Shown: positions 21,313-37,947 of the stretch, one piece after another
How the letters are laid out: every line of letters begins with the position of its first letter
Numbering within the stretch: position 1 is the first letter of the stretch
Assembly: GCA_002796345.1 (NCBI GenBank)
Contig: PCXC01000039.1
Coordinates: 4 to 64,003 of the forward strand
DNA: 64,000 nt
Direction of reading: 5' to 3'
DNA from: Deltaproteobacteria bacterium CG11_big_fil_rev_8_21_14_0_20_42_23
GTDB lineage: Bacteria; UBA10199; 2-02-FULL-44-16
Program-made: the position numbers and the translations under genes
Notes under the pieces: model-generated
Databases searched by the model: none
What the model saw: the letters and a program-made list of their open reading frames with translations, nothing else
Told to the model about the DNA's origin: nothing

Positions 21313-21347
21313 TTTGCCCTTTCAAAAGAAAGGGCTTTTCTTTTTTA
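21313..21347 (+). terminator. Rho-independent terminator
   Basis: ttttGCCCTTTCaaaaGAAAGGGCttttctttttt. Confidence 0.55.
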
Positions 21348-21483
21348 AATGGAGCGCTTCTATCCACTTGAAATGATTTAGCTTTGGAATATTTACTGAG
21401 AAGTGTATAATAAAAAATACGTTTAGAGCAACTTTGTGTAAGCGCTTCACCGATAATACAAGTGAAATCATTGTGGAGGCACT

Positions 21484-22023
21484 ATGGCAGGATTAGAGGC
21501 AATAAACACACAACAAATTAGGGCACAAAGTTCTGCTCGTGCCATGACCACCAAGAGCGATGGTGGAGAGGCCTTTTTAGGTATTCTTGAAGCCCTGGGA
21601 CCTGTAACGGCAGAATCTGCAGCTCAAGCTGGAGCGGGAGTAAATTCCCAAACCGTTTTGTCTTCAGCTTTTTCTGGTGTGTCAGCCAGCAGGCATCAAC
21701 TTGGCGGAGTTCCCAGCTATAGTTCGGCCACTGGAAGTGGAACCTATGTAGGCGGAGGAGTGAGTTCTACCAGATTTAACCCAAGCGTGAGAGCTGCATC
21801 TTATGATGGCAGCGGCCCGGGCGATCTCAACGCAGGCAGTGCAGATACTTTAGCAGACAGAGCCGCGCTCCTTGATCAAATGAACCAAAGCAATACTGAA
21901 CTGCTTCAATTGCAAGCGCAAATTCAGTCAACCTTGCAGTCATTTAACATTAAATCGAACATTCTTTCAGCCGATCACAGAGCACGAATGTCGATGATTG
22001 AGAAGTTTACAGCGCGAGGATAA
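21484..22023 (+). CDS. SctF/needle-like (or FliE/SctI-like) small helical-hairpin protein with a long Ser/Gly-rich N-terminal extension
   Basis: The C-terminal 40 aa, LLQLQAQIQSTLQSFNIKSNILSADHRARMSMIEKF, follow the needle-protein C-terminal pattern (L.eYQ.kLs.Y.l.RNaQSNtvK..KD.daaIIqNF). The gene is followed by a small TPR protein and then sctJ, as in yscF-yscG...yscJ. Confidence 0.3.
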   Translation: MAGLEAINTQQIRAQSSARAMTTKSDGGEAFLGILEALGPVTAESAAQAGAGVNSQTVLSSAFSGVSASRHQLGGVPSYSSATGSGTYVGGGVSSTRFNPSVRAASYDGSGPGDLNAGSADTLADRAALLDQMNQSNTELLQLQAQIQSTLQSFNIKSNILSADHRARMSMIEKFTARG

Positions 22024-22040
22024 TAAACGTGAAGCGGAAA

Positions 22041-22080
22041 GAGGCGAAGACGAAATCTTTGCCTCTTGCTTGCTTCTTCA
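22041..22080 (+). terminator. Partial terminator or attenuator hairpin after the needle-like gene
   Basis: GAGGCGAAGAcgaaaTCTTTGCCTC followed by the T-rich ttgcttgcttcttc. Confidence 0.35.
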
Positions 22081-22115
22081 CGCAAGATTAAATACTGATT
22101 TGTGGGGGGATAATT

Positions 22116-22565
22116 ATGGTAAGTCTCGATCGTAAATACCTGCTGGTAATGATGGAAGCGGGTTACGTTTATTTGGGCATGCAACGTTTTGAAGAGGCAA
22201 CAAAAGTATTTGAAGGCATTGCTGCTCTTGCTCCTGACAGTGAAGTTCCTATTGTAGCCCTTGGTGGAGTTTCCTTTTGCAAGGGTGATTTCAAAGATTC
22301 CATTCGGCACTATAAAAAAGCCCTCAAAATTGATCCCGACAGCCTTTTTGCCAAGGTGTATTTAGGCGAAGCGCTTTTTTTCTCAGGAGAAAAAGAAAAG
22401 GCCATGAATTTTTTGCAAGAAGTCTTGAAAGCAGATCATGATGGAGCCGCCGGCAATTTTGCAAAGGCACTTCTTGAAGCTATCGATCACGGATTTACAC
22501 CAGGAATGATTCTGGAAAAAGAAGGAAAACAAGCTCATGCAAAAGCGCAAACACAAGTACATTAG
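22116..22565 (+). CDS. Small TPR protein, a YscG-like (class III) or LcrH-like T3SS chaperone candidate
   Basis: The 149-aa protein contains three TPR-like helical pairs. It sits between the needle-like gene and sctJ and overlaps sctJ by 29 nt. Confidence 0.4.
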   Translation: MVSLDRKYLLVMMEAGYVYLGMQRFEEATKVFEGIAALAPDSEVPIVALGGVSFCKGDFKDSIRHYKKALKIDPDSLFAKVYLGEALFFSGEKEKAMNFLQEVLKADHDGAAGNFAKALLEAIDHGFTPGMILEKEGKQAHAKAQTQVH

Positions 22566-35663: not shown

Positions 35664-35687
35664 AGGATACCGTATGGCGCTGGCAAG

Positions 35688-36467
35688 ATGGGGGATGTGC
35701 TTCAAAAGTACAATCCCCCTCTTTTTACGGCGTATAATGACAAAAAGCGAAGAAAGAACGAAAGGTTGTCTAAAAGAATGGAAAAAACGGAATATATTTG
35801 GCATAATCAAGAAGTCTGCGATTTTACAGGCTTTTTGGAGATAAGTCCTATGGGAAAAGACAAAAAAGAAAAGCCGGCGAAAGCATCCGCATTCCGTATT
35901 GGCTTTGATGAGGCCATGCCAGAAGAAGAGGCCAAGCGCCAAGTGGCTGAATACATGCGCAAGCTCGAAGAGGAGTATAAAGATGTGCCTCCCGAAGAGC
36001 TTGAAGCTAGTGCCGAGAAAATGCGCGCCTACCTTCGCGGCGATATTGCGTGGGGAGACTTGTTCAACTTTAGCATCGAAGCGCTGATGGAAATGACCGA
36101 CTTCGGCTATCATCAGTTTAAAATGGGAAGATACGAAGATGCCGAGCGCATTTTCAAAGTGCTTACCGTTTTAGATTGGAACAATGCTTATTATCATTCC
36201 ATGTTGGGTTCCATTCTTCACCGGCAAAAACGTTATGCCGAAGCGCTTACCGAATACTCGCAAGCTATTGAACTTTCTCCAAACGATATTCCAAGCCATA
36301 CGCATCGTGGAGAAATTTATCTTATGCATGGTCTTTTGGACAAAGCCAAAGCTGATTTAGAAAAAGCTCTTTCACTTGATGAAAGCGATGAAAACAAGTG
36401 GGTGAATCGCGCACGTATTTTGATGCAGCAACTTGAAAAAAAACAAGCTGCACAAAAAAAGGATTAA
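35688..36467 (+). CDS. T3SS class II (translocator-type) TPR chaperone of the LcrH/SycD/CesD family, with an N-terminal extension of about 100 aa
   Basis: FGYHQFKMGRYEDAERIFKVLTVLDWNNAYYHSMLGSILHRQKRYAEALTEYSQAIELSPNDIPSHTHRGEIYLMHG forms three TPRs with LcrH-family spacing. The start is ambiguous; candidate ATGs are at 35688, 35778 and 35850. Confidence 0.6.
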   Translation: MGDVLQKYNPPLFTAYNDKKRRKNERLSKRMEKTEYIWHNQEVCDFTGFLEISPMGKDKKEKPAKASAFRIGFDEAMPEEEAKRQVAEYMRKLEEEYKDVPPEELEASAEKMRAYLRGDIAWGDLFNFSIEALMEMTDFGYHQFKMGRYEDAERIFKVLTVLDWNNAYYHSMLGSILHRQKRYAEALTEYSQAIELSPNDIPSHTHRGEIYLMHGLLDKAKADLEKALSLDESDENKWVNRARILMQQLEKKQAAQKKD

Positions 36468-36470
36468 CAT

Positions 36471-37379
36471 ATGGTTACTGAAATTAGATCGCAGACGGGA
36501 AGTCAGCGTCTAGGGCAGACTGAAGAGCGGCAGAAGGTTCTTGATGCGCTCAAAGAAGGAAATATTTATGAAGTCCTTCGGAATCTTCCCGAAGGTGTTT
36601 CTGCGGGAGATATTCAAGATTATTTTCGTGGTCAAGGTGCATATTATCACCAACTACTTCAAGATACAGAGCAATCTTTCGCGCACAAAGCATCAATGCC
36701 AGCGCCAGATCCCAGTATGTTTGTAGCGCATGAATCAGGGGTGCGCTTGACTGAAGAGGAACAAAAAGAATTGGCTCTTGCGCTTGAAGGCATGGCGAGT
36801 CCGCGTGCAATGAACATTAAAGGTGCTGGAAACGTTCGTGCGGAACATGTTGAAGGCGAACAAGATGCGGCGCATGCAGGAACACCATTAAGCAAAGAGG
36901 AACTTCAAGATCTCCAAAAAAGAACAAAAAATGATGTTGAATCAACCTTGTTTGAACTTATGGATAGAGTTTACGATCAACAAATGATGTCCGACTACAA
37001 AAGGCGTATGGCTGAAATTAAAAAAGAAATTGAAATCGCAAAACGTTCTGGAAATCCAGCGTTGATTATTGTTGCCTTGACTAAAAAAGTAATGCTCAAA
37101 AAAGGCATTTACATGAGCCGCATTGGAAAAGAGATGGCGCTTACCAATGAGAAGCTTAACAAAATTCAAGAAGATCTTGGAACAAGTACCGATGTAAAAG
37201 ATTTAAGCAAAGCCCAAGCCGATACAAGACAAGAAAACTTCAGCTTGAATCAATTGACCAGCGATTTTCAAAGTTTGGTTCAAGGAGTTGCTTCAGATCT
37301 TGAGTTTGCACAAAGTACAGTGCAAGACTATTTCCGTACTTCAAACGAAATTTCGCGCAAAGTCAGCGGACAAGGATAA
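36471..37379 (+). CDS. Hydrophilic helical protein; a candidate T3SS-secreted substrate
   Basis: It sits between the two class II chaperone genes. RBS aaggattaacatATG. The only hydrophobic stretch is the short PALIIVALTKKVML. Confidence 0.35.
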   Translation: MVTEIRSQTGSQRLGQTEERQKVLDALKEGNIYEVLRNLPEGVSAGDIQDYFRGQGAYYHQLLQDTEQSFAHKASMPAPDPSMFVAHESGVRLTEEEQKELALALEGMASPRAMNIKGAGNVRAEHVEGEQDAAHAGTPLSKEELQDLQKRTKNDVESTLFELMDRVYDQQMMSDYKRRMAEIKKEIEIAKRSGNPALIIVALTKKVMLKKGIYMSRIGKEMALTNEKLNKIQEDLGTSTDVKDLSKAQADTRQENFSLNQLTSDFQSLVQGVASDLEFAQSTVQDYFRTSNEISRKVSGQG

Positions 37380-37386
37380 ACAAATC

Positions 37387-37947
37387 ATGCAGACAGCTGA
37401 ACCTTCAAAAAGTACGCAGATTATAGATCCTACGCCGCCGCGTCGTAAGCATCTCATTGATGTCTTGTATGCGCTTATGGATGATAAGGTGAGTTATGCC
37501 GAAATGACAGGCGTGAAAAAACGTGAGTTGATCAATTTGGCAGAAGTGGGATTTGTAAAGTTGAGTCATGGCCGTTTGGAAGAGGCTGAAAAGATTTTTA
37601 GAGGTTTAAGTGTGCTTGATCATCGTAATGCCTATTTTCATGCGATGCTGGGTTCTATTCATCAACGTTTGGAAAGGCCTGTGGAAGCAATTTTGGAATA
37701 TTCTCAAGCCTTAGAATTAAATCCTCACGATATTTCAGCTCTTGTAAATCGTGGAGAAATTTATCTTCGCCACAAAAATTACCGCAAAGCAGCTGAAGAT
37801 TTTAAGTCTGCTATTTTGCACGACATGTCAGGTGCAAACTTGTGGGCGAACCGCGCCCGCTCTCTTGTGATTGCTATCAAATGTTCGCTGGAAGCCGATA
37901 AAGAAAGTGTGCTAAAGCGAGCCAGAAAATCCCGTTCCGGAAAATGA
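37387..37947 (+). CDS. Second T3SS class II TPR chaperone (LcrH/SycD family), a paralog of the 35688 gene
   Basis: HGRLEEAEKIFRGLSVLDHRNAYFHAMLGSIHQRLERPVEAILEYSQALELNPHDISALVNRGEIYLRHKNYRKAAEDF is nearly co-linear with the first chaperone. RBS acaaggataaacaaatcATG. The upstream part of the ORF overlaps the previous gene and is not counted. Confidence 0.6.
   Translation: MQTAEPSKSTQIIDPTPPRRKHLIDVLYALMDDKVSYAEMTGVKKRELINLAEVGFVKLSHGRLEEAEKIFRGLSVLDHRNAYFHAMLGSIHQRLERPVEAILEYSQALELNPHDISALVNRGEIYLRHKNYRKAAEDFKSAILHDMSGANLWANRARSLVIAIKCSLEADKESVLKRARKSRSGK

Follow-up and report, generated by a model that had tools for sequence, protein, structure and literature searches.

The window analyzed here, a 64-kb stretch of DNA (guanine-plus-cytosine [GC] content, 0.42) from the uncultured groundwater organism Deltaproteobacteria bacterium CG11_big_fil_rev_8_21_14_0_20_42_23 (assembly GCA_002796345.1, contig PCXC01000039.1), carries a locus that probably encodes most of a nonflagellar type III secretion system (NF-T3SS). 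The system would belong to an early-branching lineage, comprising metagenome-assembled genomes (MAGs) labelled “Deltaproteobacteria” or Myxococcota together with Acidobacteriota, that is sister to the chlamydial type III secretion system (T3SS). Homology indicates that its basal and cytoplasmic parts are of the injectisome design (SctJ, a SctI-like protein, SctL-SctN-SctO, SctP, SctR, SctS, SctT, and CdsG-like and LcrH-like tetratricopeptide repeat [TPR] proteins) and that ancestral flagellar solutions are kept, i.e., a full-length FliG homologue, separate FliM and FliN, FliO, and a signal peptide on SctR. Canonical injectisomes have lost or remodelled each of these features. The locus also encodes a FliA-type sigma factor with predicted cognate CCGATAA promoters.

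The T3SS block extends from position 20975 to 37947 on the forward strand and comprises 23 co-oriented open reading frames (ORFs), mostly overlapping or closely spaced. An earlier description of this DNA, made without database searches (the sequence-only reading), had proposed a co-oriented, tightly packed block from 21313 to 37947; the ORFs and their synteny in related genomes bear this out, and the end at 37947 stands, but the start moves to 20975 since a conserved 100-residue ORF belongs to the block. Relatives were collected with an ATPase scan of one genome per GTDB species, which gave the 80 closest loci (loci are cited here as L001, etc.). Gene content and order are kept among them in eight other uncultured genomes (L001 to L007 and L009), with ATPases 69 to 85% identical to that of the window and GC contents of 0.38 to 0.61, and because of this synteny the locus is not a chance arrangement. 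The source labels of these MAGs are “bacterium,” “Myxococcales,” “Deltaproteobacteria,” or “Pseudomonadota.” The next relatives among the listed loci are many Acidobacteriota (ATPase identity, 60 to 70%) and then Chlamydiota (59 to 66%). Acidobacteriota loci have the order sigma-28, SctI-like, SctJ, (FliG-like in L010), SctL, SctN, SctO, SctP, an FHA-FliN fusion, FliO, SctR, SctS, and SctT, followed directly by SctU and SctV; in the window clade, two substrate/chaperone pairs take the place after SctT instead. One Acidobacteriota carrier can be cultivated, Edaphobacter aggregans DSM 19364 (L061), and its locus has no FliG homologue in the corresponding place. SctJ, SctN, SctQ, SctR, SctS, and SctT, the set by which an NF-T3SS is recognized, are all present and clustered in the window.

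Placement was examined with two neighbor-joining trees. In the SctN tree (90 ATPases, 437 columns, 200 bootstraps), 51 Chlamydiota sequences were monophyletic (100%), the Acidobacteriota grouped with the window clade (82%), and that group joined the Chlamydiota (91%), deeper nodes being unresolved. In the concatenated tree of SctN, SctR, SctS, and SctT (33 taxa, 1020 columns, 300 bootstraps), the flagellar references (E. coli, Acetoanaerobium, and Priestia) split from everything else (98%), the Acidobacteriota and window clade grouped together (99%), and this group was the sister of six canonical injectisome references (98%; Ysc, Hrp2, Rhizobiales, two SPI-1-type systems, and LEE); SctR, SctS, and SctT alone gave the same topology. 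By these trees, the system is nonflagellar, lies outside the canonical proteobacterial injectisomes, and is closest to the chlamydial type. The window clade is not nested within the chlamydial clade on SctN but is its sister, grouped with Acidobacteriota, and in the concatenated tree, with its limited outgroup sampling, it does not branch with flagellar homologues. The sequence-only reading had named placement of the core proteins inside the flagellar clade, or inside a known family such as the Chlamydiales type, as refuting outcomes, and neither was found. Its prediction of an early-diverging NF-T3SS agrees with a position on the nonflagellar side and outside the six canonical injectisomes; its view that the system could not be placed gives way to the junction of SctN with Acidobacteriota and chlamydial T3SSs.

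Hidden Markov model (HMM) scores of the core proteins for flagellar versus injectisome families are nearly level and point both ways: 651 bits (TIGR03497, FliI_clade2) versus 622 bits (TIGR02546, SctN) for the ATPase, both above cutoff; 199 (fliP) versus 228 (yscR) for SctR; 94 (fliQ) versus 76 (sctS) for SctS; and 132.6 (fliR) versus 133.1 (fliR_like_III) for SctT. The window ATPase is about 59 to 60% identical to clostridial FliI (which, at 60%, is also its best match in the plasmid collection), 53% identical to YscN, 44% identical to E. coli FliI or Spa47, and 61 to 64% identical to chlamydial CdsN (three measured, trimmed alignment). Chlamydial CdsN is equally ambivalent (FliI_clade2, 642 bits; SctN, 637 bits), and the flagellum-like HMM scores are therefore a trait of the deep lineage and not evidence of hybridity.

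Among the features shared with flagella, the FliG homologue (26035 to 27042; 335 residues, full length) occupies the SctK position, after sctJ and sctI and before sctL. Pfam FliG_C matches it at 36.9 bits (cutoff, 23.3), in line with the FliG-like protein of the sequence-only reading. A profile of its family (29 members) searched against all PDB sequences found FliG only (E value, 1e-6), and alignment to four flagellar FliG proteins with hhalign gave a probability of 97.3 (E, 2e-11) over FliG residues 87 to 306; both the middle and the C-terminal domains of FliG are therefore represented. With an AlphaFold2 model of the protein (predicted local distance difference test [pLDDT], 84), the first 13 Foldseek matches were all FliG, over 295 to 320 columns against full-length FliG. 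Run on the reference loci, the family profile picks up FliG of clostridial and Thermomicrobium origin, whereas the canonical SctK proteins HrpB4, MxiK, and NolU go unmatched. The family is small, with 604 representatives at an E of ≤1e-3 among 1.84 billion.

The sequence nevertheless indicates that the protein is no motor FliG. Its score for the NCBIfam FliG equivalog is 43 bits versus a cutoff of 227, and the protein lacks some 40 residues that FliG has ahead of the MFxF motif. Residues of E. coli FliG that contact MotA are K264, R281, D288, D289, and R297. In the hhalign alignment, D289 is replaced by a family-invariant Arg (R211), R297 by Ser, and D288 by Gln in the family consensus, such that the MotA-contacting acidic pair is not conserved. 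An uncharacterized chlamydial protein encoded between sctJ and sctL was reported in a 2025 preprint to resemble structurally both the FliG and SctK families (bioRxiv 10.1101/2025.03.14.643159), and the window protein appears to give this FliG/SctK link at the level of sequence. A distant member of the family is found directly after sctJ in L100 (5074 to 6984), where the pair is isolated from other T3SS genes and is followed by RNase D-like, rpoN, hpf, ptsN, and hprK genes.

SctQ is represented by two genes joined by an ATGA overlap. The first (30507 to 31421) encodes a FliM-like N-terminal part (Pfam FliM, 44.8 bits, cutoff 27; NCBIfam fliM, 51 bits, versus SpaO_YscQ, 22 bits), whose N terminus, read directly, has no LSQxEIDALL CheY-binding motif. 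The second (31418 to 31894; start codon checked) encodes a FliN/SctQ-C-like protein (Pfam FliMN_C, 74.9 bits; NCBIfam SpaO_YscQ, 88 bits, versus fliN, 68 bits). The gene at the SctQ position of the Acidobacteriota locus L010 (8215 to 9702, forward strand) encodes a 495-residue protein whose N-terminal FHA domain is fused to a FliN domain at the C terminus, an arrangement that puts the FHA domain, normally on SctD, on a sorting-platform protein; an FHA match stands just before the FliN match in most other Acidobacteriota loci too.

The FliO homologue (31916 to 32260; Pfam FliO, 48.2 bits, cutoff 22; TIGR03500, 52.2 bits, cutoff 55.25) and the signal peptide on the FliP homologue were both noted in the sequence-only reading, and both are kept in the window clade and Acidobacteriota. 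SctR (32253 to 33062) has a FliP-like cleavable signal peptide ending in SSVAYA/Q; the AxA/Q site is conserved across these loci, as in E. coli FliP, and the peptide is absent from YscR, Spa24, EscR, and HrcR. FliO in this locus is not new, because it was reported in 2025 in NF-T3SS operons of Myxococcota and several Pseudomonadota (PMC12403147). With this precedent and that of the chlamydial protein, neither FliO nor the FliG-like protein can be counted as a purely flagellar item, as the sequence-only reading had done.

The injectisome-type parts begin with SctJ (22537 to 23517; 326 residues), an inner-membrane ring lipoprotein with the lipobox FVSC and a transmembrane (TM) segment at residues 262 to 280, followed by a 46-residue acidic cytoplasmic tail. 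It scores 94 bits for Pfam YscJ_FliF and 126 bits for TIGR02544, versus 45 bits for FliF (TIGR00206), and tblastn with E. coli and T. roseum FliF matched only the shared domain of this gene. The tail was considered as a FliF-like binding site for FliG, but SctJ tails are acidic and those of this clade are undistinctive compared with other SctJ proteins, and the idea is left as speculation. The putative inner rod protein (25526 to 26026; 166 residues) was recognized through its Acidobacteriota counterpart, encoded in the corresponding place (hhalign probability, 97.7; E, 2e-12), and also aligns with chlamydial CT668-like proteins (93.8); the L010 homologue reaches 25.5 bits for Pfam T3SS_basalb_I, below cutoff, and matches MxiI/EscI/HrpB2 at an E of 1e-4. 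In Chlamydiota, the protein encoded in the cdsG-cdsN interval (CT668 position; 9217 to 9909 in L042, and equivalents) has a C terminus homologous to these SctI-like proteins (hhalign probability, 94 to 96 versus window-clade and Acidobacteriota sequences), which suggests that it may be the chlamydial inner-rod homologue.

Downstream of the FliG homologue are genes for the SctL/FliH stator (27097 to 27786; Pfam FliH, 78 bits, and T3SS_SCTL, 32 bits; NCBIfam HrpE/YscL, 99.8 bits, versus FliH, 82 bits), the SctN ATPase (27805 to 29160), the SctO/FliJ stalk (29166 to 29684; Pfam YscO-like, 88 bits; NCBIfam FliJ, 29 bits), and a SctP/FliK-type length-control protein with a C-terminal T3S4 domain (29697 to 30494; Pfam Flg_hook, 34.9 bits, residues 194 to 263). 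SctS (33098 to 33364; start codon checked) and SctT (33393 to 34307) follow SctR. The order fliG-H-I-J-K/fliM-N-O-P-Q-R, listed by the sequence-only reading as flagellar, is present but does not discriminate, because it is also the yscJKL/yscNOPQRST order.

The needle-like (SctF-like) axial protein (21484 to 22023; 179 residues) ends in a conserved helix, and its middle part is variable and rich in Gly and Ser. It has no Pfam or PDB sequence match, but its C-terminal ∼45 residues are invariant (...LLELQAVMQS..SNILSADHRARMxMIEKFTAR), and the last 38 to 42 align end to end with CdsF (hhalign E, 8.5e-5) and MxiH/EscF (1.5e-4), better than CdsF aligns with MxiH/EscF (0.03). These E values of ∼1e-4 were obtained only with larger C-terminal alignments; with the first small ones (four versus two sequences), the homology was not significant. 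In L010, an 80-residue version stands upstream of the CdsG-like TPR gene, and in other Acidobacteriota Gly-rich proteins of 207 to 226 residues are encoded directly upstream of that gene (L011, 19246 to 19926; L019, 18854 to 19477; L021, 18317 to 18961), so the protein in the needle position seems to have gained a low-complexity insert repeatedly. The small TPR protein encoded next (22116 to 22565), a predicted CdsG/YscG-like needle co-chaperone, has CdsG as its best NCBIfam family (42.6 bits, far below cutoff), followed by LcrH_SycD, and matches Pfam TPR_2 (56.8 bits); this agrees with the yscG position that the sequence-only reading gave it, and Chlamydiota loci have a homologous TPR gene directly after cdsF.

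Two pairs of genes close the block. A 386-residue all-helical protein without a TM segment (34503 to 35663; maximum hydropathy, 0.61; orthologues 27 to 38% identical in L001 to L004 and L006) is followed by an LcrH/SycD-like TPR chaperone with an N-terminal extension (35688 to 36467; TIGR02552, 81 bits, cutoff 104.8; TPR Pfam matches), and a 302-residue helical protein, also without a TM segment (36471 to 37379; maximum hydropathy, 1.19; orthologues in L003 and L004; no Pfam match), is followed by a second such chaperone (37387 to 37947; TIGR02552, 66.7 bits, below the same cutoff; start codon checked). LcrH/SycD is the best family of both chaperones, as proposed in the sequence-only reading, but their partners are not the classical translocators it had in mind: no segment above 1.6 on the Kyte-Doolittle scale was found in the partners, in the window or in orthologues, and without a hydrophobic segment they are not YopB/D- or CopB/D-type translocators. 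We treat both as candidate soluble secreted substrates. For the 386-residue protein, there was no Pfam match, the homologue search for an alignment returned only the protein itself, and the single-sequence AlphaFold2 model (pLDDT, 49) was unusable and was not used.

Three smaller ORFs complete the block. The conserved 100-residue helical protein in the yscE/cdsE position (20975 to 21277) has homologues of 45 to 60% identity at the same position in L001, L002, L006, and L009 and no Pfam match (E up to 10); its alignment to chlamydial CdsE was weak (hhalign probability, 12), and equivalence to CdsE is regarded as unproven. A conserved 151-residue protein (23631 to 24086; 47 to 59% identical in L001, L002, L005, and L006) has one hydrophobic, TM-like segment (residues 46 to 64) and neither a Pfam nor a PDB profile match. 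The status of the Ser/Pro-rich 114-residue ORF (24097 to 24441) is uncertain: it is a gene call in the NCBI and JGI records, and tblastn found no homologue in related loci. Pfam (E up to 10) and PDB profile searches with the 100-, 151-, 179-, 302-, and 386-residue proteins were all empty.

Several elements favor flagellum-style control of the locus. The in-cluster sigma factor (24655 to 25545), identified as sigma-28 in the sequence-only reading, has FliA/WhiG as its best family (TIGR02479, 133.6 bits, below the cutoff of 189.6), with Pfam Sigma70_r2 and Sigma70_r4 matches, and its gene is conserved in window-clade and Acidobacteriota loci. A sigma-54-type promoter, TGGCATGTTTTCTGCA (24604 to 24619), lies 36 nucleotides (nt) 5′ of its start codon, and the element is near-invariant 38 to 98 nt upstream of the sigma-28 gene in L001 to L007. 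Another, TGGCATTGGCATTGCA (34436 to 34451), with one mismatch to TGGCAC-N5-TTGCW, lies 52 nt 5′ of the 386-residue-protein gene, and matching elements precede its orthologue in L001, L002, and L006. On its forward strand, the 64-kb window matches the pattern YGGYAY-N4-5-YTGCW at only two places, and these fall in the two widest gaps between genes of the locus. A loose pattern (two mismatches) is not enriched (45 matches versus 44 expected), and the two sites are credible because of position and conservation only.

The sequence CCGATAA is the −10 element of sigma-28 promoters. One such promoter, GCAACTTTGTGTAAGCGCTTCACCGATAAT (21428 to 21457), lies 27 nt 5′ of the needle-like gene, and a second, ACAACTCAGCTATGCGAAAAGACGATAAT (23565 to 23593), lies upstream of the 151-residue-protein gene; the arrangement GCAACTT-N14-15-CCGATAAT is found 47 to 79 nt before both genes, not only in the window but also in L001, L002, and L006, and the needle-like gene of L009 has a similar motif ahead of it. 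In Acidobacteriota, elements resembling these stand ahead of the SctI-like and needle-like genes (L012 and L019). These promoters have been kept at orthologous positions while coding sequence diverged to 56 to 69% identity. CAAC-N15-19-CGATAA has five matches in the window versus 0.5 expected, whereas the classical pattern TAAA-N14-16-CCGATA has none, the actual −35 element here being GCAACTT. A third promoter, GCAACTTTGGCTAAGGTACGGCCGATAAG (61124 to 61152, forward strand), lies 23 kb from the T3SS locus and 26 nt 5′ of a 313-residue coiled-coil ORF (61177 to 62118, forward strand; no Pfam match), possibly an extra regulon member or secreted substrate. A FliA-type sequence thus goes together with −10 elements of the GCCGATAA type, found in target promoters that precede two or three genes.

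Immediately beyond the block, on the reverse strand, are genes for an FHA-domain sigma-54 enhancer-binding protein (38151 to 39587; Pfam FHA, Sigma54_activat at 232 bits, and HTH_8), with a 74%-identical homologue at the same place in L004, and for a Ser/Thr protein kinase with one TM segment (residues 384 to 402) and six PEGA domains (39553 to 42213; Pfam Pkinase, 125 bits). The former is likely to activate both sigma-54 promoters and the latter is likely to be the sensor that feeds it. Kinase genes also flank Acidobacteriota loci, and in Chlamydiota loci one directly follows cdsQ. The window holds two FHA-type sigma-54 activators in total, the second (62214 to 63827, reverse strand), with two FHA domains, adjoining the 313-residue ORF. 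Terminator-like hairpins at 21316 to 21335 (after the 100-residue ORF), 22039, and 24473 to 24490 (after the 114-residue ORF) fit five transcription units; that at 22039 to 22067 on the forward strand, between the needle-like and co-chaperone genes, has a 12-bp stem and no strong T tract and could be an attenuator that leaves the needle subunit in excess over the downstream genes. We infer that a sigma-54 → sigma-28 cascade of the flagellar kind may control the locus. The conserved sigma-54 and sigma-28 promoters of an NF-T3SS locus are new here; a literature search found no description of a sigma-54 → FliA cascade driving an NF-T3SS, which is absence of evidence only.

We propose that the membrane kinase senses an envelope or contact signal through its extracytoplasmic PEGA repeats and acts via the FHA domain of the adjoining activator. 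The activator would then fire the two sigma-54 promoters, driving the sigma-28 gene with the SctI-to-SctT operon and the substrate/chaperone operon, and sigma-28 would in turn fire the needle-like gene (with the TPR co-chaperone and sctJ), the gene for the small membrane protein, and that for the distant coiled-coil protein. In the assembled machine, a FliM/FliN-type platform would dock the ATPase and would be tied to the SctJ ring by the FliG homologue; the exported proteins would be the needle-like subunit and the pair of soluble, helical substrates that the LcrH-like chaperones keep bound. SctU, SctV, and any SctC or SctD would be encoded elsewhere in the genome, as in Chlamydia.

A number of points weigh against this proposal. 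Pfam found no sctU, sctV, sctC, or sctD in the 64-kb window, which also holds no gatekeeper gene, so the completeness of the machine is an assumption. Host-membrane translocon proteins are not evident, the chaperone partners lacking TM segments, and the name “needle-like” for the 179-residue protein, though reasonable, is founded on ∼40 aligned residues. Both trees are neighbor-joining trees with three or four flagellar references and without Myxococcus or Desulfovibrionales, and Chlamydia is missing from the concatenated tree, chlamydial SctR, SctS, and SctT lying outside the fetched loci. Promoter function, the link from kinase to activator, and the contact between FliG and SctJ are inferred from sequence. 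As for the missing genes, neither sctU nor sctV was found in the 10-kb flanks of window-clade loci, SctC secretin and SctD had no match in the window or in window-clade loci (secretin matches were in Chlamydiota loci only), and a search with SctV of Acidobacteriota gave ∼7,900 matches, of which the 120 best included none attributable to this MAG. Orphan sctV (FHIPEP) genes, 54 to 56% identical to Acidobacteriota SctV, were seen in Myxococcota-labelled MAGs (L095, 4048 to 6192; L098 and L099, 10001 to 12142) among housekeeping genes (rpsI/rplM, a PP2C phosphatase, and a sigma-70-family gene), which hints that T3SS genes are scattered in these lineages.

Could the block instead be an ordinary or decaying flagellar export and switch operon (fliG to fliR) with miscalled “injectisome” parts? 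Its ATPase scores slightly higher for FliI_clade2 and SctS higher for FliQ, FliM, FliO, and FliG are above their Pfam cutoffs, and clostridial FliI is the best plasmid-collection match of SctN (60%). Genuine chlamydial CdsN is equally ambivalent, however, and the ring protein is a 326-residue lipoprotein scoring far better for SctJ than for FliF (126 versus 45 bits), with no FliF in the window. YscO-like, SctI-like, CdsG-like, and LcrH-like proteins are encoded, the FliM-like protein lacks the CheY-binding motif, D289 of FliG is an invariant Arg, and the flagellar references separate at 98%. In all ORFs of ≥150 residues, Pfam found no FlgB, FlgC, FlgE, FliE, flagellin, or MotAB in the window; tblastn queries from the Ysc, Hrp, Mxi-Spa, LEE, and flagellar reference sets added no T3SS or flagellar gene to the window, and in the flanks of relatives they brought up no gene for a rod, hook, filament, or Mot protein. 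This explanation is largely refuted and very improbable. Every item listed in the sequence-only reading is in the sequence, and the mosaic of injectisome-type and flagellum-type parts is real, but the term “hybrid” overstates it because the window lacks structural genes specific to flagella (FliF, rod, hook, filament, or Mot). We think it still less probable that the locus is a nonfunctional relic, despite the core genes missing from the window and several family scores below curated cutoffs, given that all ORFs are intact, gene order is kept in nine genomes with GC contents of 38 to 61%, and translational coupling and promoters are conserved.

Two known types of system come closer. Plain membership of the Chlamydiales type, with the T3SS acquired by or shared with a nonchlamydial host, would agree with the identity of SctN to CdsN (61 to 64%) and the junction of the two groups (91%), with the CdsG-like TPR protein, the CT668-like SctI, and the adjoining Ser/Thr kinase held in common, and with sctU, sctV, sctC, and sctD lying outside the locus as in the scattered chlamydial layout (PMC3459982). 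Set against these are the separate 100% clade of the 51 Chlamydiota, the grouping of the window clade with Acidobacteriota (82%), the merging of two separate chlamydial clusters in one locus with FliO, split FliM/FliN, sigma-28, and sigma-54 promoters added, and the lack of CopB/CopD-like hydrophobic translocators, which together make membership unlikely. We consider it similarly unlikely that the system is a needleless and secretin-less Myxococcus-type “T3SS*,” confined to the inner membrane or used in predation and not injectisome-like. Relatives are labelled Myxococcales or Deltaproteobacteria, secretin, sctD, and translocon genes are missing from the window, both nonflagellar T3SSs of M. 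xanthus have FliO (PMC12403147), Myxococcus systems are the earliest-branching NF-T3SSs (PMC3459982), and Myxococcota MAGs have orphan sctV among housekeeping genes; but Myxococcus loci were described without SctF and FliG (PMC3459982), whereas in the window a needle-like gene comes with its own TPR co-chaperone and sigma-28 promoter, and a SctP ruler and a FliG homologue are encoded. A bolder view, to which we give tentative and distinctly less than even credence, is that the architecture is transitional between flagellum and injectisome: full-length FliG would still couple the SctJ ring to a FliM/FliN-type ring, the gate would be assembled the flagellar way with FliO and a signal-peptide-bearing FliP, transcription would run from sigma-54 to sigma-28, and the axial subunit would be flagellin-like, with conserved terminal helices around a variable insert.

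The origin of the injectisome from the flagellum has been inferred mostly from systems already without intermediate features. Under our preferred interpretation, an early-branching NF-T3SS sister to that of Chlamydiota, the window clade and Acidobacteriota provide sequence-level bridges from FliG to SctK and from FliM plus FliN to SctQ, with FliO and the FliP signal peptide kept, and tie NF-T3SS promoters directly to sigma-54 and to FliA, the sigma factor classically in charge of late flagellar genes. They also indicate that free-living phyla of soil and groundwater widely carry NF-T3SS relatives of the chlamydial system. They raise the questions of whether a FliG-type adaptor builds a ring or pods, whether it binds the SctJ tail or the FHA domain of SctD, and whether Chlamydia inherited from such an ancestor its reliance on sigma-54 and sigma-28 in late and T3S gene expression. 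If the architecture were transitional, FliG coupling would be the direct ancestral state of SctK and the sorting-platform pods, a continuous C-ring-like structure would underlie a needle-type basal body, and SctK would descend from FliG. Interest is tempered by the missing sctU, sctV, sctC, and sctD, the partial precedents, and the purely computational evidence.

The remainder of the window holds housekeeping genes only. It includes a PrkA-DUF444 (YeaH)-SpoVR operon, a conserved stress/starvation module (47802 to 52568, forward strand), downstream of an MlaE/MlaF/MlaD operon (45354 to 47763), and, at 7084 to 10389 on the reverse strand, the gene for a 1101-residue protein with acidic Pro/Glu-type repeats (a weak PARP repeat match) and weak glycoside hydrolase 123 domains.

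Of the known systems, the flagellum shares with the locus homologues of FliG (N, M, and C domains), FliM, FliN, and FliO, the signal peptide of the FliP homologue, a colinear gene order, and a sigma-54 → sigma-28 hierarchy with the CCGATAA −10 element, but in the window FliF gives way to SctJ, genes for rod, hook, filament, and stator are missing, the FliM-like protein has no CheY-binding motif, and the MotA-contacting acidic pair of FliG is not conserved. Canonical injectisomes (Ysc, SPI-1, LEE/SPI-2, Hrp, and Rhizobiales) share homologues of SctI, SctJ, SctL, SctN, SctO, SctP, SctQ-C, SctR, SctS, and SctT, the JKL/NOPQRST order, a needle with a TPR co-chaperone, and class II-like TPR chaperones; in the window, a FliG-type protein replaces SctK, SctQ is split, and FliO and the SctR signal peptide are present, in keeping with a sister lineage rather than a member. 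In Hrp1 T3SSs, the sigma-54 enhancer-binding HrpR/HrpS turns on HrpL, an alternative sigma factor that drives T3SS genes. The window sigma factor, in contrast, is FliA type and not of the extracytoplasmic function (ECF) type, and a Ser/Thr kinase accompanies its putative activator, which bears an FHA domain. Myxococcales NF-T3SSs are likewise early branching, are found in “Deltaproteobacteria,” have FliO in the operon (PMC12403147), and have no evident secretin or translocon, but by published description differ from the window, which has the needle-like gene, SctP, TPR chaperones, and a FliG homologue. Our literature search found no description of an Acidobacteriota/“Deltaproteobacteria” T3SS group, again as absence of evidence only.

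The closest likeness is to the chlamydial Cds system, the sister on SctN with 91% joint support. The CdsE-F-G module (the CdsE equivalence being weak), a CT668-like protein, and an adjoining PknD-type kinase all have counterparts in the window, where a CdsG-like TPR gene follows the needle gene and a CT668-/SctI-like gene precedes the ATPase region. Both systems also have a FliG/SctK-like protein adjoining sctJ (bioRxiv 10.1101/2025.03.14.643159), a Ser/Thr kinase adjoining the cluster, LcrH-like chaperones with N-terminal extensions, a FliI/SctN-ambivalent ATPase, and sctU and sctV outside the cluster. They differ in that the window has one contiguous J-to-T cluster rather than two, FliO, separate FliM and FliN, a sigma-28 gene, and sigma-54 and sigma-28 promoters within it, a needle-like protein of 179 residues with a Gly/Ser-rich middle versus 77 to 108 residues in Chlamydiota, no FHA-type CdsD, secretin, or hydrophobic CopB/CopD, and a nonchlamydial host. 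In Chlamydia, sigma-54 and sigma-28 drive late genes that include T3S effectors (PMC7482065, PMC10597470), and a common origin of this use of the two sigma factors with that in the window is plausible.

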